Origin: a virus
Lineage: Duplodnaviria; Caudoviricetes
DNA length: 60,790 bases
Direction: 5' to 3' (one strand)
Virus record (IMG/VR): IMGVR_UViG_3300025018_000166
Location: 1-60,790 of that record
Part shown: piece by piece, positions 10,748-39,795 of the stretch
How the letters are laid out: every line of letters starts with the position of its first letter
Numbering within the stretch: position 1 is the first letter of the stretch
Notes under the pieces: generated by a model
The model's database searches: none
What the model was told of the DNA's origin: nothing
The model's input: the letters and a program-made list of their open reading frames with translations, nothing else
Program-made: the position numbers and the translations under genes

Positions 10748-12604
10748 ATGCCCGCCACCTACCTCACCGGCGACGCGCTCGCCACCCTCGCCACCCTGCC
10801 CGCGAACTCGTTCGACGCCATGCTCTGCGACCCGCCGTACCACCTCACGACCGGCAAGAAGGGCGGCAGCGGCCCCGCGAGCGTCACCCTCGACAACCCG
10901 TACGGACGCGCGCGCGTCACCGCAGGCTTCATGGGGATGACGTGGGACGGCGGCGACGTCGCCCATAATCCCGCCGTGTGGCGCGAGGCGCTGCGCGTGC
11001 TCAAGCCCGGCGCGTTCGCGCTCGTCGCGTGCGGCACCCGCACCCAGCACCGCATGGTGACGGCATTGGAGGATGCGGGCTTCGAGATCCGCGACGTGAT
11101 CGCATGGCTCTACGGCAGCGGCTTCCCCAAGAGCCACGACGTGAGCAAGGGCATCGACCGCGCCGCGGGCGCCGAGCGGCCGGTGATCGGCCCCAACCCG
11201 GCCGCGCGCCCTGGAGACGCGGGCACGGGCGTCGCGGGCGAAACGGCGACGACCAGCAGCGGATGGCGCAAGCCTGTGCGCCCCGACAAGACGGGCGCCG
11301 CCACCCCGGACGCGGAGCGGTGGCAGGGGTACGGCACCGCCCTCAAGCCCGCGATAGAACTGTGGACGCTCGTGCGCAAGCCACCCGAAGGCACGGTCGC
11401 CGCGAACGTTCTAAGGCACGGCACCGGCGCACTCAACATCGACGGGTGCCGAGTGCCGACGGATTGGGCGGCTGATCGCGGGGAGTCGTGGTTGCGAAGC
11501 GGCAAGCAAACGGTCCCCGACGACACCTGGCAAGGCCCAAGCGCAAAAGCGCAAGGTTCGACCGTGGCCGACCGGGTGAACACCCTCGGCCGTTGGCCTG
11601 CGAACGTGATTCATGACGGCAGCGACGAAGTGCTCGCGGGATTCCCAGAGAGCACCGACGGCGTCGCGGTCAAGCGCAACGGCGTAACCCACGGCGGGCG
11701 CATCGCCTTCGGCGGTATCGGCAAACACCCGCCCGGAACCCCTGACGTCGGCTTCGGAGGGTCCGGTAGCGCGGCCCGGTTCTTCTACACGGCTAAGAGT
11801 TCGCGCCACGAGCGCATGGCCGGGCTAGGGCACATCGAAACTATCGTGGTATCGTCAAGCACATGGGACGGCGAGGAACACGAAGCACGGCTCCAGGTGG
11901 ATACGGCACCATCACCCCCAAGGGTTATAGGCGCGTTTGGGACGCCGAACAGCGACGTAGCCGAATGGAACACGTTCTTGTTTGGGAGCGGCATCACGGA
12001 AGCATCCCAGCAGGGATGCAGGTTCACCATCTCGACGGCGACCCCCTCAACAACGCCATCGCCAACCTTGCGCTCGTTGACCCAACGACACACAAGCGCC
12101 TTCACTCTGGCTGCGAGCAGCGAGGTGGACGCTGGTACAAGCCCTGCTCCATCTGCCGCGAACTCAAGCCCATCGACGCCGAGCATTGGTACCTCTCCCG
12201 CGAGGGGTGGCCGCTCTACGGACGGTGCCGACCCTGCCACATCGCCCGAGTGGTGGGCGAGAAACGCGCGCGTAAGGCTGCGAAGCGAAGGCGCCAAAGG
12301 CTCGACCCACCCGACCCATAAGCCGCTCGCCCTGACGACCTACCTCGCGCGGCTGCTGCTACCGCCCGAGCGCGCGGACGGGATGCCGCGGCGGATCGTG
12401 ACGCCGTTCAGCGGTGTCGGCAGCGAGGTGATCGGCGCGCTCCTCGCGGGGTGGGACGAGGCGACGGGCATCGAACTCGATCCCGCGTACGCGAGCATCG
12501 CGCGTGCCCGCACCGCGCATTGGCTTGCGCACCCGCACGACCTCGAAGACGCCGACGAGGCGCCCGTCGCGCCCGCATCGTTCGGCCCCCTGTTCGACGG
12601 TTGA
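10748..12604 (+). CDS. beta-class N6-A/N4-C DNA methyltransferase with a ~160-aa low-complexity insertion
   Basis: DPPY near the N-terminus, WLYGSGFPKS, ALKPA, RWPAN, ARFFY, HPTHKP, PFSGVGS near the C-terminus. Confidence 0.9.
   Translation: MPATYLTGDALATLATLPANSFDAMLCDPPYHLTTGKKGGSGPASVTLDNPYGRARVTAGFMGMTWDGGDVAHNPAVWREALRVLKPGAFALVACGTRTQHRMVTALEDAGFEIRDVIAWLYGSGFPKSHDVSKGIDRAAGAERPVIGPNPAARPGDAGTGVAGETATTSSGWRKPVRPDKTGAATPDAERWQGYGTALKPAIELWTLVRKPPEGTVAANVLRHGTGALNIDGCRVPTDWAADRGESWLRSGKQTVPDDTWQGPSAKAQGSTVADRVNTLGRWPANVIHDGSDEVLAGFPESTDGVAVKRNGVTHGGRIAFGGIGKHPPGTPDVGFGGSGSAARFFYTAKSSRHERMAGLGHIETIVVSSSTWDGEEHEARLQVDTAPSPPRVIGAFGTPNSDVAEWNTFLFGSGITEASQQGCRFTISTATPSTTPSPTLRSLTQRHTSAFTLAASSEVDAGTSPAPSAANSSPSTPSIGTSPARGGRSTDGADPATSPEWWARNARVRLRSEGAKGSTHPTHKPLALTTYLARLLLPPERADGMPRRIVTPFSGVGSEVIGALLAGWDEATGIELDPAYASIARARTAHWLAHPHDLEDADEAPVAPASFGPLFDG
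11863..12321 (+). CDS. HNH homing endonuclease nested in another frame of the methyltransferase
   Basis: GY..EHVLVWERHHG.IP.GMQVHHLDGDPLNNAIANL..H..LH plus CSIC/CRPC; TATCGT 7 nt before ATG. Confidence 0.85.
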   Translation: MGRRGTRSTAPGGYGTITPKGYRRVWDAEQRRSRMEHVLVWERHHGSIPAGMQVHHLDGDPLNNAIANLALVDPTTHKRLHSGCEQRGGRWYKPCSICRELKPIDAEHWYLSREGWPLYGRCRPCHIARVVGEKRARKAAKRRRQRLDPPDP

Positions 12605-29809: not shown

Positions 29810-29986
29810 TACGCTTGAGCCGGGCGCGCGACACCGTGGGAGGCCACGGCACAGCGCGACGGTAAGGGTAGATGGCCGACTCCGCACTCGCCGACCGGCC
29901 TGCCCCGAGTGATCGCTACCGGGATCTCGACCGACCGGCGCGCGCCCACCACCGCCTGCGACGGCGGCGCCCGCTACCGTGAGGGC

Positions 29987-32900
29987 ATGTACCGGCCGAC
30001 GTTCACCGCGGGCTACTACGAAGCGCACCACCCGCGGGTGGGCCGCGTGATCTTCTACGCGACCCTCAGCCCGCTCGAACACGTGACGTTCGCGAAGGCG
30101 GGTGACGCGCCGGACGAGAAGTGGATCACCCTCAAACCGCACGGCCCCGACCACCCCTCGTACGTGCACGTCAAGATCCGACAGCACGTGGACGGCACCG
30201 CCTCGGTCATCACCGGCGCACCCGAACTCCGCGGCCTGCGCCTGAACCGCATGAAGAAGCCGGACGATCCCGACGCCGCACCGAGCGGTGGCCGGAAGGC
30301 GCTGCGCGCCGCCGCGAAGGAACGCGTGGCGGGCCTCAGCGATCAGCAGCGCGAGGTGCGCGCGCAACGGCAGAAGGCGCTGAAGGACAAGGTCGCCGAA
30401 GTCACGAAGCGCGCCGCGTCGCTCGCCAAGGAGTTCACCGGCGGCAGCGACGACGACGACAAGGACGACGAACCGCTCACGAAGGTGCAGACGCGCTTGC
30501 GGCGGCTGGAGCGCGAAACGATTCGCGAACTCGCGCAGGACACCACCGTCCGCGCCGCCGTCCTCGGTCACGACGAAAGCGTGAGCGCCGATCAGGTGCC
30601 CGGCGCCCTGCCGACCGGCAGCGGCACGCGGGGGTACGCGTTCAGCGCCAAGGAAGAAGCCGCGGAGCGCGGCTTCACCCGCGAGGACGCGCGCAAGGAG
30701 GACGACGCGTTCTTTCAGAAGCGCGTGGACGCCGTCCTCGCTACGGACCCGGTGAAGGCCGCACGGATGATCGAGGCGCGCGAGCGCATGCAGGCGCGCC
30801 GCGACGAACGCGAGCAGAACCCGAAGCCGAAGCCGCCGCGGCCGGATCCGGTGAAGCCCGAGCAGTTGGTCGAGAACGCCGCGAAAGCCCGCGAGTACCT
30901 GGGCGCCATGCGGGAACTGCGCGCGATGAAGCGCCAACTCAGGATCACGAACCTCGCGCTCGATCCCGACAGCAGCGACGCCGAACTCGACGCGATGACG
31001 CGCGCCAGCGAACCGCCGAAGGATGCACCGTGGGACGTGAGCGCCAGCACCCTCAGCCCGGAGCACGCGCGGGAGATCGAGAAGGCCGTCAAGGACGCCG
31101 CGGATGAAGACCTCACGCGCGCGTTCCTGGACGCCGCTACCGCCGACGAAGGCATGGGGTGGGGCTACGACCGCATGCGCACCGCCTTGCGCGCACCGCA
31201 CGCGGCGGGCGCGTACGCGCACCTCAACAACCTCGCGCTCGCCACGTACGGCCACGAAGTCCTCGACCGCACCGCGCTCGACATGCTCGGCACGAACGCC
31301 GCCGCGCAACTCCTCGCGCGGCACCTGATCCAGAACCAGACACCCGAAGACCTCGATCTACTCCGCGACGGCTTGGGCGAGTACCACGACCGCAACAGCA
31401 CCGAGCGCATGCGCACCGCCCTCGATGAAGCGCAGGTCGCGCGCGACGCCGCCGCCGAGATGGAAGTCCCCGACATCACCGCGAACGTGGACGCCGTCGT
31501 GGCACGCCGCATGATCCTCGACAAGCGCCGGATGCTGGAGAAGGCGCACCATGCGCTCGGCACCGCGCTCGGGCAGGTCGAAGCGGGCGCCGCGATCAAC
31601 TTCGCGCTCGGTCGCCCGAAGCAAGACCAGTTGATCGTGGACTTGGGCGACACCGACGTCGAGCGCGCCAGCACGAACCTGCGCGCCCTCGGCCTCGATG
31701 ACGGCCAGTACGACTTCCATCGCGACGCCGAAGGGCGCCTGTGGACGTCAATCAACGGCGCGGGCATGGACGCGCTCACGCAGCCAGTGGACCCCGCCGA
31801 AGCCGAACTCGCGGACGCCGTGAACGCGATCAAGGACGGCGCCGAGGACGAAGCCGACTGGCTACCCGCAGGCTTCACGCGGTACCCCGCCAGCGCGTTC
31901 GACAAGAACCCGCCGCTACCCGAAGCGTTCGCTACCAACCCCCTCGCGCCCGACCCCGACGACGACGGCGAACCGAAACCGATCAGCGACCGCATGCGCG
32001 ACGCCGTCGCCAGCCGCCTCGCGGACGGCTGGAACCCCGCCGAAGTGCGCCGGTACCTCACCAGCGAGGGCACCCTGAGCGCGATGCCTACGCACGAGCG
32101 CGCCGAAGCGGAAGCCGCGATCAGCGACCTCATGCCTCTGCGCGACGCCGACGGTGAACCCATCGACTACGCACGCATGCACGAGAAGCACCCGGACGCG
32201 TACGCGACCCTCATGGGCACCGCGACCGACTGGGCGCGCGAGAACAAGCCCGACGAGGCATCGTTCCTCGACCAGCAGATCAGCGACACCGACCCGGACG
32301 TGCACCGCGCGCTGTTCATGGCGATCACCGAGGATCCCGCAACGCAGGTCGCGCACAAGCCCATCGGCACCCTCACCCCGCAAGATCAACGCGCGATCCG
32401 CGGGTACTTCCTCCAGAGCATCGTCGGCCTCAGCCCCGAGCAGATGGCCGAACGTCAGGAGGACGCGGGCAAAGCCGTCGAAGGCTGGGAGAAGGCCACG
32501 AACGCGGACGGCACCATCCGAAACCCCATGCCCGACAAGTTCGTCGGCCTCATGGGCGCCAAACCGAACCCGTACGTGACCCTGCGCCTCAACGTGCCCG
32601 CCCGATCCGACGAGAAGAAGGCGCTCACGAGCATGGGGTTGACGGAGGAGGGCGTGCACTTCGTTCGCGACGCCCAAGGCGAAACGATCACGCTCACCGA
32701 GGAAGGCAAGCGTGCGCTGAAGCCGCCGCCGAGCGCGTGGGCCGACAAGATCAAGGGCTTGGAGGGCTTGAACCCGGCGTACCGCTCGTGGCACGACGAC
32801 CGCAAGAAGGTCGCCGCCGCCGCGTTCAACCCCGACGACACCCCGGAGTGGCGCGACTTCGTCGCGAACGTCGGCGGCGCGCAGCAAGCACAGAAGGTCG

Positions 32901-35900
32901 TGCAACAGCACATGCAGGGCGCCCTCGCGGATCGCTTCCAGCGGTACCACGCGAACCTCACGAAGAAGCCGTTGCGCCTCACGACCCGCCCGAACGATCA
33001 CGGCGACATGCTCATGCGCCTGCAAGACCCCGAGGAGTTCCAGCGCCTCAGCGCCCGAATCAAAGCGGAGCAGGACGAGAGCCGCGTTCGCGAAGGCGGG
33101 AAGTTCGCGGACATGGGCGGCAAGGGCGCCCTCAAGCGCGCGTTCGAGGAGCAGGAGCAGAAGCGTCGCGCCGCCGCCCTCGCGCAAGGCAGCATGTTCG
33201 GCGGCGCCAGTGAGGACAACGGCGGCAAGCGCCCGGATCCGATCCGGCACTTCGAGCGCGTCGCCCTGCCCGACCACATCGCCGCGCGCCTCGGCGCGAT
33301 GACGACCACCGTCGCGGGCAGCATCGGCCCGAACACGAACCCCGTGAACCTCATCCCGGACCTCACGATGGGTAGCGGGACGAAGTTCGTGAAGCAGCAG
33401 CGCGCGATCAAAGCCGCGTTGCGCGCCAAGAAGTTCGCGACCTTCCTCGGCGTCGGGTGCGTGGACGGCGCGACGCTACTCACGGACGCCGTGACGGGCG
33501 AAACCCGGTCGTTCCACGAGTGGATGATCGCGCGCCGCGCGCCGCGCGTGTGGGCACTCGATCAGCAGCAGAAGCCGGTCATCGCGCAGGCGACGGTGCC
33601 GTTCGTGAAGGCGTTCGAGCCGATGTTCGACGTCGCGACCACCGGAGGACGCACGATCCGCGTCGCAGCCGGGCACAAGTTCCTCACGCCCGACGGGTGG
33701 CAGCCGCTCAAGAGCCTTCGCGTCGGCGACGCCGTCGGTACGCCCGCCCGCCTTCGCGGATGCGCTCCTTCCCTTCCGGCGTCCAGTTCGGCACTTGCCC
33801 CTTCAGGGTCGCCGCAAGATGCGCACCGTTCGACTCGTACACCGCCAGGTTCGACGGATCGTTGTTCGCCACGTCCCCGTCCAGGTGATGCACGACCTCA
33901 CGCCGCCGCAACCGGCGCCCTAGCGTGCGCTCCATCACCAACCGATGCTCACGCACGTACCCGTTCGAGTTCGCATGCGGATGGTCCGGTGCACGCACAA
34001 GCCGATACCCATGCTTATCCACAACCACCCCGCCTCCCCATGACGGGTTTCGCTCACCTAGACGCGCCCCTTCGGGAAGCCGCGGGATGCCAAACCGAAT
34101 CGTGGCTTGACGCACCGACTCCGCGCTCGAAAGGCCCAGCGCAGCCGCGATCTCGGACGTGCTCAACCCACGCGCCGCAAGTTCTCGTAGCCGCGCTTCC
34201 TGATCCGCAAGTGGACTCGGCCGACCCTTCCGCGCCGGTGTACCGCCCGCCAACACCAACGCCGTCATCACAAGGCGCTGCGAGCAACCCAGGGCGCGAG
34301 CCAGCGCCGGGCCGCGCTCACCCGCCTCGTAGCGACGCCGGACTTCCTCTTGGAACGCTGGATCGTTCTGCCGACCGTACGGCTTTCGAGGCATGGACGC
34401 AGCATACCTTGGGGTGGGATGCGGTCGAGAGCATCATCGAACGCGCGCCCGACCTTGTGTACGACATCACCGTGCCGCACCACGCGAACTACCTCGCGCA
34501 CGGCATGTGGCACCACAACAGCGGCAAGACCGCCGTCGGGATCGGCGCGTTCACGGAGGCGCACGCGAAGGGACTTGTGCGCAAAGGCATGTTCGTGGTG
34601 CCGAGCATCGTCAGGAACCAGTTCGGCGAGGAGATGGCGCGCACCGTCGAGCCGGGCAAGTTCGGATGGCACGCCGGAGAAGCGAACCTGGACGAGCGCC
34701 TGAAGCAGTATCAGAACCCGGACACGCACATGGTCAGCGTCACGCACCAGGCGTTCCGGGACGACATGGTGACGCTCATGCAGCGCGCGCACGGGTACGA
34801 CGACGCGGACGAAGCCGCGGACGCGTTCCTCGAAGCGGACCCCGGCGAGCGCACGCGGATGCTCAAGAAGGCGCTCGATCAGCACCAGATCCCGATGGAG
34901 TTCCTGATGATGGACGAGGCGCACGACAGCCTCGACCGCGCCGGGAAGGCCGAGAGCCTATTGACCGCCGTCACCGAAACCGCGATGGGCCTCGCGAGCC
35001 ACGCGATCCTCGCGACCGGCAGCCCCGTCAAGAACGACGCCAGCGAAGTCCACTCCTGGCTGAAGAAGTTGGACCCGCAACGGTTTGGGGATCGCGACGA
35101 GTTCATGCGCAAGTACGGCACGGACATGCACGCCAGCGCCGAAGCCCTCAAGCGCCTCATGGGCCGGTACGCGTACTCGGACGTGGTCGCCAGCGGATCG
35201 AGCAAGACCGTGACGTGGGGCGCCGAAGGCGAAAACGGCGACAGCCCGAGCGGGCACGCACGCATCCGCCTCAGCCCGCAGCAGCGCGCCAGCCTCGCGC
35301 ACACCCGCGACGCGTACGAGCGCGCGCGCCGCGCCCGGCAGAACGGCGGCGTGGACGTGGAGGCGCTGAAGGTGCTCACGCCGCGCTCGTTCGAGCGCAC
35401 GAAGCCGGACCAGCACCAGGCACTCGCGAAGCGCCTCAACCGTGCCTTGGGCGCGCTGAAGCACGCCGCCGAGAGCCGGGTCGTGAACGAGGCACCCGCG
35501 GAGCACAACGCGAAGATCCAGCACGTCCTGAAGCTCGCGGACGGGCGCCGCGGGAAGGGCGGCGTCGTGTTCGCGCACAATCGCGCGAGCGTCACGAACC
35601 TCGCCGCGTCGTTAGAGAAGGCCGGGCACAAGGTCGCGACGCTCACCGGCAGCGACAGCAGCGAGCAGAAGGCGCGCATCCGGGAGCGGTTCAAGCGTGG
35701 CGAGATCGACGTCATCGTCGCCAGCGACGCCGCCGCGACCGGCGCGAACCTCCAGGATCGCGGCGAATGGCTCGTGAACTACGACCTGCCGCTCACGTAC
35801 AAGACGCTGGAGCAGCGGAACGCGCGCATCGACCGCCTCGGCCAAACGCGCCACATCGAACTGCACCACCTGATCACGGACGCGGATCACGACACCGACA

Positions 35901-36061
35901 ACCTCGACCGCCTCACCCGCAAGCACGCGCTCGCGGGCATCCTGCAAGGCGAGCACGAGAGCCTGGACGACACCGGCCTCGCGAAGTACCTCAACGTCGC
36001 CGCCGCCGCGCGCACCACCGAACCGCCCGCGCCCGCCGAAGACCAGGGAGGCATGTTCTGA
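29987..36061 (+). CDS. giant virion-type protein with an intein-interrupted SNF2/SF2 helicase
   Basis: GVG|SGKT Walker A split by the intein, MMDEAH, ATGSPVKN, AAATGANLQ, EQRNARIDRLGQ; leaderless TACCGT-6 nt-ATG at 29987. Confidence 0.88.
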   Translation: MYRPTFTAGYYEAHHPRVGRVIFYATLSPLEHVTFAKAGDAPDEKWITLKPHGPDHPSYVHVKIRQHVDGTASVITGAPELRGLRLNRMKKPDDPDAAPSGGRKALRAAAKERVAGLSDQQREVRAQRQKALKDKVAEVTKRAASLAKEFTGGSDDDDKDDEPLTKVQTRLRRLERETIRELAQDTTVRAAVLGHDESVSADQVPGALPTGSGTRGYAFSAKEEAAERGFTREDARKEDDAFFQKRVDAVLATDPVKAARMIEARERMQARRDEREQNPKPKPPRPDPVKPEQLVENAAKAREYLGAMRELRAMKRQLRITNLALDPDSSDAELDAMTRASEPPKDAPWDVSASTLSPEHAREIEKAVKDAADEDLTRAFLDAATADEGMGWGYDRMRTALRAPHAAGAYAHLNNLALATYGHEVLDRTALDMLGTNAAAQLLARHLIQNQTPEDLDLLRDGLGEYHDRNSTERMRTALDEAQVARDAAAEMEVPDITANVDAVVARRMILDKRRMLEKAHHALGTALGQVEAGAAINFALGRPKQDQLIVDLGDTDVERASTNLRALGLDDGQYDFHRDAEGRLWTSINGAGMDALTQPVDPAEAELADAVNAIKDGAEDEADWLPAGFTRYPASAFDKNPPLPEAFATNPLAPDPDDDGEPKPISDRMRDAVASRLADGWNPAEVRRYLTSEGTLSAMPTHERAEAEAAISDLMPLRDADGEPIDYARMHEKHPDAYATLMGTATDWARENKPDEASFLDQQISDTDPDVHRALFMAITEDPATQVAHKPIGTLTPQDQRAIRGYFLQSIVGLSPEQMAERQEDAGKAVEGWEKATNADGTIRNPMPDKFVGLMGAKPNPYVTLRLNVPARSDEKKALTSMGLTEEGVHFVRDAQGETITLTEEGKRALKPPPSAWADKIKGLEGLNPAYRSWHDDRKKVAAAAFNPDDTPEWRDFVANVGGAQQAQKVVQQHMQGALADRFQRYHANLTKKPLRLTTRPNDHGDMLMRLQDPEEFQRLSARIKAEQDESRVREGGKFADMGGKGALKRAFEEQEQKRRAAALAQGSMFGGASEDNGGKRPDPIRHFERVALPDHIAARLGAMTTTVAGSIGPNTNPVNLIPDLTMGSGTKFVKQQRAIKAALRAKKFATFLGVGCVDGATLLTDAVTGETRSFHEWMIARRAPRVWALDQQQKPVIAQATVPFVKAFEPMFDVATTGGRTIRVAAGHKFLTPDGWQPLKSLRVGDAVGTPARLRGCAPSLPASSSALAPSGSPQDAHRSTRTPPGSTDRCSPRPRPGDARPHAAATGALACAPSPTDAHARTRSSSHADGPVHAQADTHAYPQPPRLPMTGFAHLDAPLREAAGCQTESWLDAPTPRSKGPAQPRSRTCSTHAPQVLVAALPDPQVDSADPSAPVYRPPTPTPSSQGAASNPGREPAPGRAHPPRSDAGLPLGTLDRSADRTAFEAWTQHTLGWDAVESIIERAPDLVYDITVPHHANYLAHGMWHHNSGKTAVGIGAFTEAHAKGLVRKGMFVVPSIVRNQFGEEMARTVEPGKFGWHAGEANLDERLKQYQNPDTHMVSVTHQAFRDDMVTLMQRAHGYDDADEAADAFLEADPGERTRMLKKALDQHQIPMEFLMMDEAHDSLDRAGKAESLLTAVTETAMGLASHAILATGSPVKNDASEVHSWLKKLDPQRFGDRDEFMRKYGTDMHASAEALKRLMGRYAYSDVVASGSSKTVTWGAEGENGDSPSGHARIRLSPQQRASLAHTRDAYERARRARQNGGVDVEALKVLTPRSFERTKPDQHQALAKRLNRALGALKHAAESRVVNEAPAEHNAKIQHVLKLADGRRGKGGVVFAHNRASVTNLAASLEKAGHKVATLTGSDSSEQKARIRERFKRGEIDVIVASDAAATGANLQDRGEWLVNYDLPLTYKTLEQRNARIDRLGQTRHIELHHLITDADHDTDNLDRLTRKHALAGILQGEHESLDDTGLAKYLNVAAAARTTEPPAPAEDQGGMF
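33458..34519 (+). mobile_element. 354-aa intein in helicase motif I
   Basis: CVDGAT N-terminus, AAGHKFLTPDGW block B, VYDITVPHHANYLAHGMWHHN|S C-terminus. Confidence 0.93.
33708..34394 (-). CDS. HTH-HNH homing endonuclease encoded antisense within the intein
   Basis: two HTH segments, NPSWGGG..GY..HPHA..GYVREHRLVME..LGR.L..EVVHHLDGDVANNDPSNL; TATGCT 6 nt before ATG on -. Confidence 0.88.
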   Translation of the reverse strand: MPRKPYGRQNDPAFQEEVRRRYEAGERGPALARALGCSQRLVMTALVLAGGTPARKGRPSPLADQEARLRELAARGLSTSEIAAALGLSSAESVRQATIRFGIPRLPEGARLGERNPSWGGGVVVDKHGYRLVRAPDHPHANSNGYVREHRLVMERTLGRRLRRREVVHHLDGDVANNDPSNLAVYESNGAHLAATLKGQVPNWTPEGKERIREGGRAYRRRRRREGS

Positions 36062-39000
36062 TGCCGGACACGAAGCGCAAGGACGCACGGGATCAGCCAC
36101 CGCCGACGCCGGAGGACGCGAAGAAGATGCTCGCGGCGCTCACCGGCGATCTCGCGCGCACCGACGCGGAACTCGACCGCGTGCACCAGGCCGCCGAACG
36201 GCTGCACGACCACCATCGTGCACGCCGCGACCTCGCGAGCGGTGCGATCACCGACTACCGGCCGTCGCACCTCACCGCCGAGTACCTGGATCACGTCCGC
36301 GAAAGCGCCCGAGCGGATGCGCTCGCGAACGCGGACGGCGCCCTCGACCACCACGCCGCCCGCGACCGGCTACCGTTCGCGAAGGCCGACCAACCGAGCC
36401 TGTTCGGATCGTCCCCGCTCATCCCCGTGAAGAAGGTCGTGCGCCGCAAGGACGGCGCGCACGTGCAGACGTTCCACGTCAGGCCCGCCGACACGCGCCC
36501 CGCGGAGCGCGTGAGCATGTTCGATCCCGCCGCCGCACCCCCCGAACCCACACCCGCGCTTGACGCGCGTACGCACGAGGCGTACACTTCGGGTGGAGGT
36601 TCGACCATGACCACGAACGCGACCGAGAAACCGACCGCGCCCGTCCCCACCGTCCAAGGCATCACCGCGCTCCTGAAGCGCGCTGGACTCACGTCCCGCG
36701 CGTCCGGCACCGCGTACGGCTACGGCGGCACCGCGGCGGGTTTCGTCGTCGGCAAGGAATACGATCCCCGCATCAAAGGCGGCGCGGTCCGGGTCCGATA
36801 CAACGGCGGCGCACTCGCGCAACTGCCGAATCACCCCGAAGCCCTCGCGATGGCCCGACCCGTCCTCGCCGAAGCGGGCTTTGCGATCACGAACAGCATG
36901 GGCGACTGGATCGTCACCGCCGCGCCGCAACCGGAGCCAACCCCCGAGCCGGTCGCGGCGCCCGACCCGACCGAGGACGATGCGCCCGCGACGACCATCG
37001 TGCAGGTGCCGACCACGTTCTACGACGACCACGTGGATCGCCAACTGCCCGCCGGTCGCGTGATCAAGCGCACGAGCCGGTACGTCCGCCTCGAACTCGA
37101 CGCCGACGACCACGCGGAACTCCTGAGCGACGCCGAGCATTACAGCGAGAGCGACGACTTCGACATGACGGACCCGCGCATGCGCGGCCTCGTCCTCAGC
37201 GCCCGCGCCACCGCGAAGGCGCTGCGCAAAGGCGAAGCGCCCGCGCCGCTCACCGAAAACGCCGCCGAGAAGCGCGCCATGAAGGACGCCATCGAAACCG
37301 GCGACAGCGACGGCCACGCGTTCGCGTTCGACCACCGCGACACCCCCGACATCGAACACCTGATCCCGGACTTCCTCGCGAACCTCCGCATCCCGTACGC
37401 CCACCGCGAGCACCCGACCCGCATCGCCGCGATGCGCGTCGCCGCCGAACAAGGATTCCGCGCAGCGCACGCGCGCTTCCGCGCCACCCTCGCGCCCGAA
37501 CCGGAACCCGAGCCGGAACCCGAGCCGGTCGAGGCGCCCGCCGACAAGCCGAAGGTCACGGTGCGCGCGTACGACATCCACGAAACCGAGCACGGGTGGC
37601 GGATCGAGCAGACGCACGAGTCGTTCCGCAGCGCCGCCGAAGCCAGCGCCGCCGTCCGCGCGCGCGATCAAGCCGCCAGCGACGACGAAGGCACGAGCAT
37701 CGTCAGCACGATCTCGTGGCACCCGACCACGAACGCGGGAACCCGCATCGTCCAGACGTTGCAAGCGATGGGCGGCGCGGTCGAACCCGAGGAGCGGCCC
37801 GCGCCGACGCTGAAGAAGGTGCGCGCAGGCTTGTACCAGGCCGAGCGGTTCATCGACGGCAAGCGCGCCACGTTCCAGATCGAGCGCATCGAGCGCGGCG
37901 ACACGGCCCACGCGAGCGACGTGGGGCTGTGGGCCGTGCACGTCAACAGCGACGTCGGCGAACCCTGGTACCAGACCCTCGCGGAAGCCCGCGCGTACGT
38001 CCTCGACGGCGATTGGTACTGGCACCCTCAGTACGGCCTCACGCCCGGCAAAGCGCCAACGCCCGAACCCGATCCCGAACTGAAGCCGAAGCCCGAACCG
38101 AAGCACCGCGTTCGCATGACGGACACCCAGTACGCCGCCGCCATCGAGCAACGCATGGACGGAGGCGAGCACGTGGACGGCCTGAAGTGGGACGGCCGCA
38201 ACTTGCTCGTGGACGATCCCGCCGCCGTCAGCGCCGCCCTCACCGACATGGCGAATCAGGAAGACGCGCAAGCCGAGGAGAGCGACGGCGACACCCGGAA
38301 GCACGCGCGCGCCGCCTCGACCGCCCTCAGCAACCTCGCGCTGAAGGTGGCGCGCCTTGCCTACGACCCCGAACCGGACCCCACCCCCCCCGTTGACGCG
38401 CGTACGCACGAGGCGTACACTTCGGGTGGAGGTTCGACCATGACCGATACCACCCCGAGCACGAAGATCGTTCGCGCCACCGACGCCGACGGTTTCGGCC
38501 GCGAGTTCCGCATCCGCGAGGACGGCGTCACCGAAGCCCGCGAAATGCTCGACGGCGAAGCCCTCAGCGATTGGAAGACGACGCCCGAGTTCCAGAACAC
38601 CAAGACCCTCGGAGGCGTGTTCCAAGCGCCCGAAGACCTCGATCACATCGTCCGCAGCCTCAACCGCAAACTCGGCACGAAGGGCAACTGGCAGACCGTC
38701 GAGATCGTGGACGCCGACGAGTCCGACGCCCGCGTGGACGCGCTCGCGAAACTCCTCGCGGAACGCCACGACAAGGTGCTCCAGGACGTCGATAACGAGT
38801 TCGCCCGCCAGCGCGCCGAGGAGGAAGCCAAGGACCGCGAAGCGGGCGCCGACTCCGCGCGCCGCCGCGTGGATCAAACGCTGCGCTACGACGGCAGCCT
38901 CGAAGACGCGCAACGCGAGAGCAAGTACGACCTCATCGCCCGCAGCAAGGCGTACACCGAGGCGTACGAAGCGGCCCTGACCGAAGGCTTCCGCACCGCG

Positions 39001-39795
39001 CCGCCGTACCGGCCGTCCCGCGACGAAGCCGCGCACGCGTCGTACAAGAGCGGCGTCAAGACCGCCGCGAAACTCCTGCACCTGCTCGATGATCCCGCGA
39101 ACGCGGACCGCGAGCGGATCAAGGACTTCGTGAACACGGCGATGTGGAAGCACACGAGCCTGTTCCCGAAGAAGTACCGCGGCGTCGCCGGTCAGGACTT
39201 GCCGATGTACGACGCCGAGAACTTCGAGCACGGCCTAGCGAACGGCTTGTGGGACTTGCGGCACACCGAACCCGAAGCGCCCACCGATCCGAACGTGCCG
39301 CTTCCGAACGCCGACGATCTCCTCGCCGAGCACGCGCGCGCCATCGCGACCGCCGAAGCGACCCCCGACTTCGATGAACCGGAACCCGACCGGCCCGACC
39401 TCAACGAGCCGTGGGGCAGCATGAAGTCGCAGGTGTGGCACGCGTGGCGCAACCGTCGCGACACGCACGACGAGAAGCGCGCGATTCCCGCGCCACCGAT
39501 CACCGTCGAGCACAACGACGCCGAAGCCAAAGCGTTCGTGCGCGGCTGGGAGCGGTACATCCCAACCTACCAACGGATCGCCGCCGACTTCGACTTCGAC
39601 AGTTACGAGGTCAGCCGCGACGCCGACCACCTCAACATCGCCTTCGTCCTCAAGCCCCGCAAGTGGTACGACACCTACCGCCACTTCATGCTCCGCATCG
39701 GCGCGCGCGGCAAGATCCAGTCCTTCACGAAGAAGAACTCGAAGTCCGGCAGCATGCGCTGGACCGACGGCTTCATCTCGACGGACGGGAAGTAG
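36061..39795 (+). CDS. giant multi-module virion-type protein (1244 aa)
   Basis: TGATG coupling with GGGAGG RBS; FAKA-QPSLF-KKVVRRKDG module; small domains joined by PEPEP linkers. Confidence 0.8.
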   Translation: MPDTKRKDARDQPPPTPEDAKKMLAALTGDLARTDAELDRVHQAAERLHDHHRARRDLASGAITDYRPSHLTAEYLDHVRESARADALANADGALDHHAARDRLPFAKADQPSLFGSSPLIPVKKVVRRKDGAHVQTFHVRPADTRPAERVSMFDPAAAPPEPTPALDARTHEAYTSGGGSTMTTNATEKPTAPVPTVQGITALLKRAGLTSRASGTAYGYGGTAAGFVVGKEYDPRIKGGAVRVRYNGGALAQLPNHPEALAMARPVLAEAGFAITNSMGDWIVTAAPQPEPTPEPVAAPDPTEDDAPATTIVQVPTTFYDDHVDRQLPAGRVIKRTSRYVRLELDADDHAELLSDAEHYSESDDFDMTDPRMRGLVLSARATAKALRKGEAPAPLTENAAEKRAMKDAIETGDSDGHAFAFDHRDTPDIEHLIPDFLANLRIPYAHREHPTRIAAMRVAAEQGFRAAHARFRATLAPEPEPEPEPEPVEAPADKPKVTVRAYDIHETEHGWRIEQTHESFRSAAEASAAVRARDQAASDDEGTSIVSTISWHPTTNAGTRIVQTLQAMGGAVEPEERPAPTLKKVRAGLYQAERFIDGKRATFQIERIERGDTAHASDVGLWAVHVNSDVGEPWYQTLAEARAYVLDGDWYWHPQYGLTPGKAPTPEPDPELKPKPEPKHRVRMTDTQYAAAIEQRMDGGEHVDGLKWDGRNLLVDDPAAVSAALTDMANQEDAQAEESDGDTRKHARAASTALSNLALKVARLAYDPEPDPTPPVDARTHEAYTSGGGSTMTDTTPSTKIVRATDADGFGREFRIREDGVTEAREMLDGEALSDWKTTPEFQNTKTLGGVFQAPEDLDHIVRSLNRKLGTKGNWQTVEIVDADESDARVDALAKLLAERHDKVLQDVDNEFARQRAEEEAKDREAGADSARRRVDQTLRYDGSLEDAQRESKYDLIARSKAYTEAYEAALTEGFRTAPPYRPSRDEAAHASYKSGVKTAAKLLHLLDDPANADRERIKDFVNTAMWKHTSLFPKKYRGVAGQDLPMYDAENFEHGLANGLWDLRHTEPEAPTDPNVPLPNADDLLAEHARAIATAEATPDFDEPEPDRPDLNEPWGSMKSQVWHAWRNRRDTHDEKRAIPAPPITVEHNDAEAKAFVRGWERYIPTYQRIAADFDFDSYEVSRDADHLNIAFVLKPRKWYDTYRHFMLRIGARGKIQSFTKKNSKSGSMRWTDGFISTDGK
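36560..36612 (+). promoter_or_regulatory. Class-1 cassette, copy 6, internal and in frame
   Basis: TTGACG-17 bp-TACACT, GGAGG, in-frame ATG 36607. Confidence 0.8.
38393..38445 (+). promoter_or_regulatory. Class-1 cassette, copy 7, internal and in frame
   Basis: 53 bp identical to 36560-36612; in-frame ATG 38440. Confidence 0.8.

Follow-up and report, generated by a model that had tools for sequence, protein, structure and literature searches.

A putative HTH-HNH_3 homing endonuclease gene on the opposite strand of a Walker A intein in a phage helicase gene and in related phage ATPase genes

Endonuclease genes placed on the opposite strand of an intein have been described before. Antisense LAGLIDADG genes in the inteins of Synechocystis dnaX and of a Chloroflexus SpoVR-like gene are credited to Gorbalenya 1998 and Gogarten 2002 in a recent study of actinophage inteins, which itself reports inteins with antisense LAGLIDADG and VSR-like endonucleases (Gosselin, Arsenault and Gogarten, bioRxiv 10.1101/2025.01.02.630785). 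In the accessible text of that study 63 out of 784 inteins are non-canonical, such integration is called "extremely rare", HNH endonucleases are listed in frame only, and the proposed origin is a free-standing endonuclease gene that invaded an intein. Here we describe a locus in IMG/VR virus record IMGVR_UViG_3300025018_000166 (Caudoviricetes), a record of 60,790 bases (69.5% GC, completeness estimated at 75%) that was analysed at its full length and is called the window below. A helicase gene in the window is interrupted in its Walker A motif by a class-1 intein, and a separate gene encoding an HNH_3 protein with two helix-turn-helix (HTH) domains lies on the opposite strand. We consider it likely that the two make up a mobile composite element, in which the HTH-HTH-HNH_3 protein serves as the homing endonuclease.

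Related arrangements are known from other elements. In a cyanobacterial dnaX intein, purifying selection acts on the LAGLIDADG frame (Phillips, DeSimone and Gogarten, bioRxiv 10.64898/2026.09.14.751524). The ShiLan type is a same-strand, out-of-frame HNH gene within a phage DNA methylase gene, with no intein involved (Arsenault et al. 2025, PMC11855218). An in-frame HNH_3 intein in the dCTP deaminase of cyanophage CL131 splices in E. coli (PMC6293099). In fractured genes, an endonuclease gene is found between the halves of a split intein and the host gene consists of two open reading frames (ORFs) (Dassa et al. 2009, PMC2677866).

The host gene in the window is an ORF on the plus strand (29909..36061, 2050 aa) encoding a SNF2-type phage helicase, whose exteins carry the Pfam domains SNF2-rel_dom and Helicase_C. 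A 354-aa intein at 33458..34519 (+) divides its Walker A motif (GVG/SGKT, the slash marking the point of insertion), with the borders reading ...KKFATFLGVG/CVDGATLLT...HGMWHHN/SGKTAVGIGAF.... The N-extein (29909..33457, +) ends in ...FLGVG and shares 37% identity with the helicase of Thermus phage Lalka8, which lacks the intein, and the C-extein (34520..36061, +), which starts at SGKT and holds SNF2-rel_dom and Helicase_C, is 58% identical to the same protein from GSGKT onwards. The N-terminal Hint half (CVDGATLL ... AAGHKFLTPDGWQPLKSLRVGD) occupies 33458..33737 (+), with an approximate 3' boundary, and shares its final ~10 codons with the 3' end of the HNH gene. The C-terminal Hint half, as read from the sequence, is found at 34395..34519 (+) and ends in ...WDAVESIIERAPDLVYDITVPHHANYLAHGMWHHN. 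The GC content at third codon positions (GC3) is ~0.90 in the helicase exteins and in both Hint halves, the N-terminal half (0.90) being the same as the exteins.

Key residues of a class-1 intein are present: Cys1 (CVDG, TGC at 33458-33460), the block-B His (AAGHKFLT), the C-terminal His-Asn (...WHHN, AAC at 34517-34519) and Ser+1 (SGKT). The insert matches Pfam Intein_splicing (PF14890) with an E-value of 7.5e-13 (49 bits, cut-off 35.8), and a profile search of the genome with the same family gave a stop-free match at 33545-34519 (48.3 bits, above cut-off). Furthermore, residues 1-100 are similar to the intein segment of the intein-bearing DnaB model NCBIfam PRK07773 (E 7.5e-21). The single-sequence AlphaFold model of the intein had a mean predicted local distance difference test score (pLDDT) of 40 and tells nothing about the linker or the Hint fold.

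With the intein removed, the helicase-like protein is a giant of 1696 aa, and the Lalka8 counterpart (L089:505-5652) has 1715 aa. The Lalka8 gene is flanked by genes annotated as tail protein and baseplate protein, an odd setting for a helicase. That the helicase of the window is a late gene, as a preliminary description made from the letters of the window had it when it proposed that homing is decoupled from late expression, is an assumption.

The minus strand of the intein carries a gene of 228 codons (33708..34394, ATG at 34394-34392, TGA at 33710-33708) for a putative homing endonuclease. Its product matches Pfam HNH_3 (PF13392) above the cut-off of 24.8 bits (E 9.1e-7, 28.9 bits; 31.6 bits in a second scan) and PHROG 10730, "HNH endonuclease" (E 5.6e-26); two HTH matches were both below the Pfam threshold. 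An AlphaFold model built on a 37-member family alignment (A1) reached a mean pLDDT of 89.6 and consists of three-helix HTH modules at residues 12-48 and 63-101, a beta-beta-alpha core at about 121-198 and a C-terminal helix. When the model was compared with 48,161 representative chains, the group I intron endonuclease I-HmuI (1u3e_M) was the top structural match, over 71 residues of model region 121-198 (root-mean-square deviation 2.8 A), with a Z-score of 6.8 that is middling for this type of search; the remaining matches were HTH DNA-binding domains. A Foldseek search of the PDB with the model returned nothing at E <= 1e-3, I-HmuI being ranked 14 with a probability of 0.89, and a profile search of PDB sequences found HTH-type chains only.

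The preliminary description had placed an intein at 33458-34519 in the Walker A motif of a SNF2 helicase and a 228-aa HTH-HTH-HNH protein at 33708-34394 on the minus strand. These coordinates hold, and the search of both strands with profile models that it proposed returned Intein_splicing on the plus strand and HNH_3 on the minus strand, each above its cut-off, with the HTH domains falling below threshold.

An endonuclease gene between two intein halves is also what a fractured gene offers, as in PMC2677866: the helicase would then be made as two polypeptides that a split intein joins, with a free-standing endonuclease gene between them. Here a single ORF of 2050 aa spans the insert without a stop, and the same is true of 76 of the 82 related loci treated below, which makes this explanation extremely improbable.

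Opposite the HNH gene, the host frame reads as an in-frame intein linker of ~228 codons (33710..34394, +), the reverse complement of the HNH gene. The linker is rich in Pro, Ala, Ser, Arg and Thr, which together make up 61.8% of it versus 36.1% of the C-extein, and its GC3 is 0.55 versus ~0.90 in the flanks. These figures bear out the stop-free, Pro/Ala/Ser/Arg-rich stretch with atypical codons that had been noticed from the letters. No Pfam or PHROG family beyond the intein matched it.

Whether the openness of this frame means anything cannot be judged from the window. Synonymous codon shuffles of the HNH ORF give a mean of 1.7 host-frame stops where the window has 0, and 13.8% of 3000 shuffles were stop-free, so that the open frame is not significant there. 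Long shadow ORFs over real genes are abundant in this 69.5% GC phage, for instance at 34393-39795 (+, 1800 aa) and 36370-39231 (-, 953 aa), and ORF length alone therefore means little. For both reasons the question must go to the relatives. The abundance of shadow ORFs and the share of open shuffles are what an accident or decay would leave behind, that is, a free-standing HNH gene that ended up in a mini-intein whose frame is open by chance, the whole being a non-working unit with a dead helicase or a dead nuclease. The state of the individual parts speaks against such decay. The HNH protein retains 26 out of 26 invariant columns of the 37-member alignment, H170, N178, N182, N189 and H192 among them; Cys1, the block-B His, the His-Asn and Ser+1 are intact, and the GC3 of the Hint halves equals that of the exteins. 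A protein 99% identical to the window HNH (P0001) exists, and a contig from another study, described below, bears the element with 20 differences.

The window HNH has at least 931 homologs in a large protein collection. Searched against 1.84 billion proteins, the profile of the 37-member alignment matched 2121 cluster representatives (clusters at 50% identity) at E <= 1e-30 and 36,111 at E <= 1e-10. In a first scan of IMG/VR, seven loci (GC 0.47-0.53) were found, and all seven HNH genes lie inside an opposite-strand ORF of 769-923 aa. A profile scan of IMG/VR then gave 379 relatives, and the best 80 of these together with loci L004 and L006 form the set of 82 loci used below. In 79 out of 82 loci an antisense frame is open across the entire HNH ORF, and the covering ORF is at least 500 aa long in 76, over a GC span of 0.29-0.71. 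All 76 nested loci share one phase, with host codon position 1 opposite HNH codon position 1. The set is partly redundant, with L040 and L052 representing the same contigs as L002 and L003 and with a number of almost identical loci, and it contains 67 unique HNH sequences. In these 67 unique nested loci the host frame has 0 stops versus 353.3 expected from synonymous shuffles, in a test conditioned on loci that had been preselected as open; in 37 of the 67, none of 300 shuffles was stop-free. As an unconditioned control, 600-nt pieces of other long ORFs from the same loci were examined: of the 78 pieces, none had the same-phase antisense frame open and 10 had any antisense frame open, all ten in loci with a GC of at least 0.55.

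Three relatives appear free-standing (L022, L039 and L087), which is also what one would see if the HNH gene entered inteins by accident; further, L014 is flanked by a Hint-like fragment and L047 is interrupted by the contig end. With the layout and its phase present in 76 of the 82 loci down to 29% GC, and the stops missing throughout, we regard accident or decay as quite unlikely, and the composite element remains the reading that we follow. Two relatives outside inteins (L029:2444-3205 and L087:363-2408) are located directly upstream of, and divergent from, DEAD/ResIII-type helicase genes. At L029, the HNH gene separates the full-length copy from a short helicase fragment that ends at its P-loop (...LLVAPTGK), which looks as though part of a former target had travelled along with the nuclease gene.

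Selection on the two frames was compared between relatives. Owing to the shared phase, HNH codon position 3 lies opposite host position 2. Across 52 pairs of loci with 75-99.5% nucleotide identity, differences at HNH positions 1, 2 and 3 number 1359, 1332 and 3244. For seven pairs the differences at host-frame positions 1/2/3 were also counted by region: N-Hint, 111/81/260; overlap, 101/288/93; C-Hint, 23/17/60; C-extein, 378/225/1180. Every pair shows this pattern except the near-identical L057/L064, which has two differences in the overlap. Selection thus passes from one strand to the other where the HNH ORF begins and ends, since the excess lies at host position 2 within the overlap and at position 3 outside it. 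This comparison of frames across related inteins had been proposed in the preliminary description, and its outcome, with changes piling up on HNH position 3 in the overlap and on host position 3 elsewhere, supports the view that in the relatives the peptide in this slot of the plus frame is selected only to stay free of stops. The purifying selection on the HNH frame was measured in relatives of the window HNH; a metagenome scan for close relatives of the window HNH returned three loci, none closer than 51%.

An open host frame in every nested locus could also mean that both strands are functional and that the linker is a real intein domain, for example a regulator of splicing. The phase as such would make a conserved HNH protein yield a semi-conserved mirror peptide automatically. 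Yet the changes in the overlap fall mainly on host position 2 (288 versus 101 and 93), the opposite of what selection on the amino acids would leave, and the peptide matches no family and is of low complexity in composition. We consider a functional linker very improbable.

The nesting has also left a footprint in the HNH protein itself. The dipeptides F-I, F-M, F-T, F-N and F-K are forbidden in this phase, because a stop arises in the host frame whenever the codon after a Phe codon begins with A. Among the 120 best homologs these dipeptides occur 8 times versus 54.6 expected, with none in 113 of the 120; in 133 further representatives they occur 4 times versus 83.9 expected, with none in 130. 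Control dipeptides are found at 0.7-0.9 of expectation. The near absence of the forbidden pairs suggests that most of the close HNH family is nested, including members whose DNA has not been seen.

The genes that carry these inteins were then inferred from the ORFs opposite the HNH genes. Intein_splicing matched four out of four tested host ORFs of relatives (E 1e-6 to 2e-4, below the curated cut-off). Downstream of the HNH gene, an HN[SCT] junction is present in 66 of 68 host ORFs and is followed by G[KR] in 56 of the 68 (e.g. ...HHN/SGKT); the consensus, ...NY.A.G...HN/[STC]GK, is as in the C-Hint of the window. Where the N-terminal junction is clear it reads GG.G/C..., i.e. Walker A as in the window; intein lengths were taken only where such a G/C... 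was clear, as the automated pattern for this junction is unreliable. Of 65 measurable loci, 63 have a distance of 80-161 nt from the HNH ATG to the C-terminal junction, with -19 and 206 nt in the remaining two; distances of 122-131 nt are the most frequent (34/65), and the window has 125 nt. Pfam assigns the 65 C-exteins to Terminase_6N (17), Terminase_3 (14), Terminase_6C (6), Helicase_C (4), SNF2-rel_dom (3), DNA_pol3_delta2 (2), ResIII (2) and AAA (2), and one to a Strawberry-notch-like helicase. By these assignments the hosts are P-loop ATPases, mostly large terminases, interrupted at Walker A. Two C-exteins (alignment A3) each match Hint_2 and Intein_splicing beyond the first junction, so a second intein may be present in some of the host genes.

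In some phages, small HNH proteins work together with terminases. At least 31 of the 65 host C-exteins being large terminases, the HNH protein might therefore not be a homing enzyme at all and instead serve the phage, as an aid to terminase in packaging or in attacks on competing phages, with the intein as a safe harbour for its gene; HNH-terminase cooperation in some phages is mentioned in PMC11855218. However, SNF2 and ResIII helicases, clamp-loader-like AAA+ proteins and the Strawberry-notch-like helicase are hosts as well, and what the hosts have in common is the insertion site in Walker A rather than packaging. In addition, the protein has two HTH DNA-binding domains, its core has the homing nickase I-HmuI as its best, if middling, structural match, and intein-bearing and intein-less alleles occur together (see below). 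A non-homing role is thus unlikely. The window HNH is 45-49% identical to HNH proteins whose exteins share only 10-21% with this helicase, which fits an element that moves among P-loop genes. The correlations of pairwise identity among HNH, Hint and extein are moderate (Spearman 0.48, 0.38 and 0.41) and do not tell co-inheritance from repeated invasion.

Intein-less alleles of the helicase gene were found in two ways. A blastn search with positions 33300-34700 against 50,697 phage records matched the helicase flanks only, in the Thermus phages Lalka8, Lalka27a and Lalka27b. The "putative helicase" of Lalka8 reads FLGVG/SGKT without an insert, the alignment running up to ...FLGVG and resuming at GSGKT. 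Contigs from public runs were furthermore compared with positions 32900-35100 at a likeness threshold of 85%. Those of run X1 cover the whole of this region. Run X2, from a different study, holds an intein-bearing contig of 1255 nt that spans 33377-34630 with 20 differences, together with one of 193 nt in which 33426 is linked to 34519 by 30 divergent letters with the end ...GGCGTCGG. The short contig is a precise intein-less allele, and alleles with and without the intein thus occur together in one sample. A homing element predicts such co-occurrence, which equally follows from loss of the intein. In run X3, which belongs to a third study, pieces of the intein and HNH region are present with 0 differences; a further joint in X3, between 33267 and 34291 (sides of 21-29 nt with 1052 other letters between them), was judged an unrelated short match.

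For the HNH gene to be expressed separately it needs signals of its own, and the preliminary description had pointed to a TATGCT box 6 nt before the ATG. The box is present at 34406-34401 and belongs to a weak promoter-like site (34401..34428, -) consisting of TCGACC (34428-34423), 16 nt, TATGCT and 6 nt to the ATG, whose function may be that of a promoter. Leaderless mRNAs are common in Deinococcus-Thermus, and with this spacing the HNH mRNA of the window would probably be leaderless. Among the relatives the signals are clearer. Sigma-70-like sites with at least 9 of 12 consensus matches lie within 80 nt upstream of the HNH ATG in 21 of 67 loci versus ~1.9 expected from the background rate in the same loci, an enrichment of about 11-fold. 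Several are near-perfect, e.g. TTGACA-18-TATAAT at L050, and four loci (L010, L016, L017 and L025) have a -10 box that ends 6-8 nt before the ATG and is stronger than that of the window. A Shine-Dalgarno-like word occurs at -4 to -18 of the HNH ATG in 41 of 66 loci, a count made without a shuffled or background control. All these promoter-like sites fall in the antisense of the region coding for the C-terminal Hint half. Given these promoter-like and Shine-Dalgarno-like signals upstream of the HNH starts in relatives, independent expression of the HNH gene is plausible.

A number of observations weigh against the composite element and have to be set beside this evidence. Besides the share of stop-free shuffles in the window, they concern the window itself in several ways. 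Thr is the usual residue in block B of many inteins; the intein of the window has Ala there (AAGH). The GC3 of the HNH gene is 0.715 versus 0.90 for the phage, which fits foreign origin, the constraint of coding on both strands, or both, and is no proof of anything as regards activity. The promoter-like box is weak, with 8 of 12 consensus matches, a scan of 33300-34800 for promoters and terminators at a threshold of 9 of 12 gave 0 sites, and the one RNA run compared with the stretch showed no coverage. The intein-less X2 contig is short (193 nt), has a depth of 3.6 and was accepted at 85% likeness. Others concern the relatives: the 80 loci are the closest of 379, the stop count was conditioned on open loci as said, the HNH start was set heuristically at the first ATG of the open stretch, and the pairs in both substitution counts are phylogenetically non-independent. 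Finally, among more distant relatives the layout is mixed, with 14 of 26 of all genome loci nested.

The composite element that the preliminary description proposed, an intein with a separately encoded antisense HNH gene, is nevertheless supported by its recurrence, by the stop-free host frame and by selection in the relatives. We infer that it would work as follows. The helicase mRNA would be translated through the insert, where ~228 mirror codons yield a non-conserved Pro/Ala/Ser/Arg-rich linker that is required only to be stop-free. The two Hint halves would then fold together, splice and rejoin GVG-SGKT, restoring the P-loop. A promoter of its own, located opposite the coding sequence of the C-terminal Hint half, would drive the HNH gene and in the window would probably give a leaderless mRNA, and the HNH protein may recognise and nick or cut intein-less helicase alleles of co-infecting relatives. 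Repair of the cut would copy the intein and the HNH gene together.

A broader proposition is that the HTH-HNH_3 clade as a whole (2121 clusters) lives almost only as an antisense passenger of Walker A inteins, and that the requirement for an open opposite strand has shaped the protein sequence. We lean slightly towards this view. All nine closest relatives in species-representative genomes are nested in phase 1; these records are labelled Tepidisphaeraceae, Holophagaceae, Eubacteriales, Acidobacteria (two), a Mycobacterium metagenome-assembled genome, Phycisphaerae, Paracoccaceae and Ca. Enterousia. The carriers include phages and prophage-like regions, with genome labels from Planctomycetota, Acidobacteriota, Firmicutes, Proteobacteria, Cyanobacteria, the candidate phyla radiation (CPR) and an archaeon. 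Among 50,697 phage records, 12 have a relative of the window HNH at E <= 1e-10.

Two Pectobacterium phages, Ymer (OP748252.2, L119) and Taid (PQ008975.1, L120), are cultured carriers. Their large terminase of 754 aa is annotated as "hypothetical protein" and contains a Walker A intein (FG/CVHP...HHN/TGKS); the terminase-intein ORF sits between genes annotated "terminase" and "portal protein". A 232-aa HNH_3 ORF on the opposite strand has no annotation. In Ymer the host ORF is located at L119:1080-3344 (-) and the HNH ORF at L119:2453-3151 (+).

If the broader proposition is true, this would be one of the commonest types of phage intein, hopping between unrelated P-loop genes and systematically left unannotated, whereas antisense endonuclease genes in inteins have so far been regarded as rare curiosities. 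Many inteins described as "mini" or "decaying" may then be fully mobile, and phage annotation, as in Ymer and Taid, would overlook a whole class of nuclease genes. A clade that is routinely nested would furthermore offer a clean natural case of obligatory coding on both strands, measurable on codons, dipeptides and the placement of promoters. It would also be relevant to the "splicing first, endonuclease later" account of how inteins arose, and to the question of how they can move between genes that have no more than a nucleotide-binding motif in common.

The claim that an antisense architecture of this kind had not been described, made in the preliminary description, turned out to be wrong, as antisense LAGLIDADG and VSR-like genes have been published (bioRxiv 10.1101/2025.01.02.630785). 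A literature search for an antisense HNH gene in an intein found no report of one, nor of the layout being as frequent as here, although the supplementary tables and figures of that study might list an antisense HNH; PMC8966425, PMC3610870, PMC4853749 and PMC6669764 also came up and were not relevant to the question. The antisense inteins of the actinophage study and those described here share an opposite-strand ORF between the splicing blocks, a stop-free host frame, a proposed origin by invasion of a mini-intein and large terminases among the hosts. They differ in the endonuclease, which is HTH-HNH_3 here and LAGLIDADG or VSR-like there, and in frequency, with 76 of the 82 closest relatives nested in one phase here and such nesting rare there. 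The taxa differ as well, being Thermus-phage-like and many others here and actinophages in that study.

The cyanobacterial dnaX intein (bioRxiv 10.64898/2026.09.14.751524) shares with the element an overlapping endonuclease ORF, purifying selection on the endonuclease frame with relaxation on that of the host, and the presence of both alleles in populations. That ORF lies in the +2 frame, encodes a LAGLIDADG enzyme and belongs to a bacterial chromosome, whereas the gene described here lies on the opposite strand, encodes HNH_3 and belongs to a phage. With the ShiLan type (PMC11855218) the element has in common an unannotated HNH homing gene that overlaps a stop-free host ORF. There the gene is on the same strand and no intein is present, so that the insert stays in the host protein; here it is on the opposite strand and inside an intein.

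The window has a second ORF pair that resembles a hidden HNH gene of the ShiLan type. An HNH_3 ORF of 152 aa (11863-12321, +; E 1.3e-16) is embedded at an offset of 2 in a DNA methylase ORF of 618 aa (10748-12604, +) that has a DPPY motif and matches Pfam N6_N4_Mtase (E 5.2e-8); over the HNH_3 ORF the methylase frame is stop-free and rich in Ser, Thr, Pro and Ala. This phage would then carry two different hidden HNH genes.

The intein of cyanophage CL131 likewise combines Hint and an HNH_3 endonuclease in a phage gene (PMC6293099); its HNH_3 domain is part of the intein polypeptide, whereas the one described here belongs to a protein encoded separately on the opposite strand. I-HmuI of phage SPO1 (PDB 1u3e) is also an HNH enzyme with added DNA-binding modules and is the best structural match of the nuclease core, at the middling Z-score given above. 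It is encoded in a group I intron, and the DNA-binding part of the protein described here consists of two N-terminal HTH domains. Fractured genes (PMC2677866) share the endonuclease gene between intein halves, but in the window the host ORF is continuous. Set against these systems, HTH-HNH_3 lies outside the LAGLIDADG and VSR-like classes reported so far for antisense inteins and appears to be a new class of antisense intein endonuclease. What also appears new is a large clade that, in the close relatives examined, is almost always nested antisense in Walker A inteins, in one phase, with promoter-like sites of its own and a footprint in the protein. The same holds for the breadth of its occurrence over phages that differ widely in GC and in host range, among them cultured phages in which it had gone unannotated.

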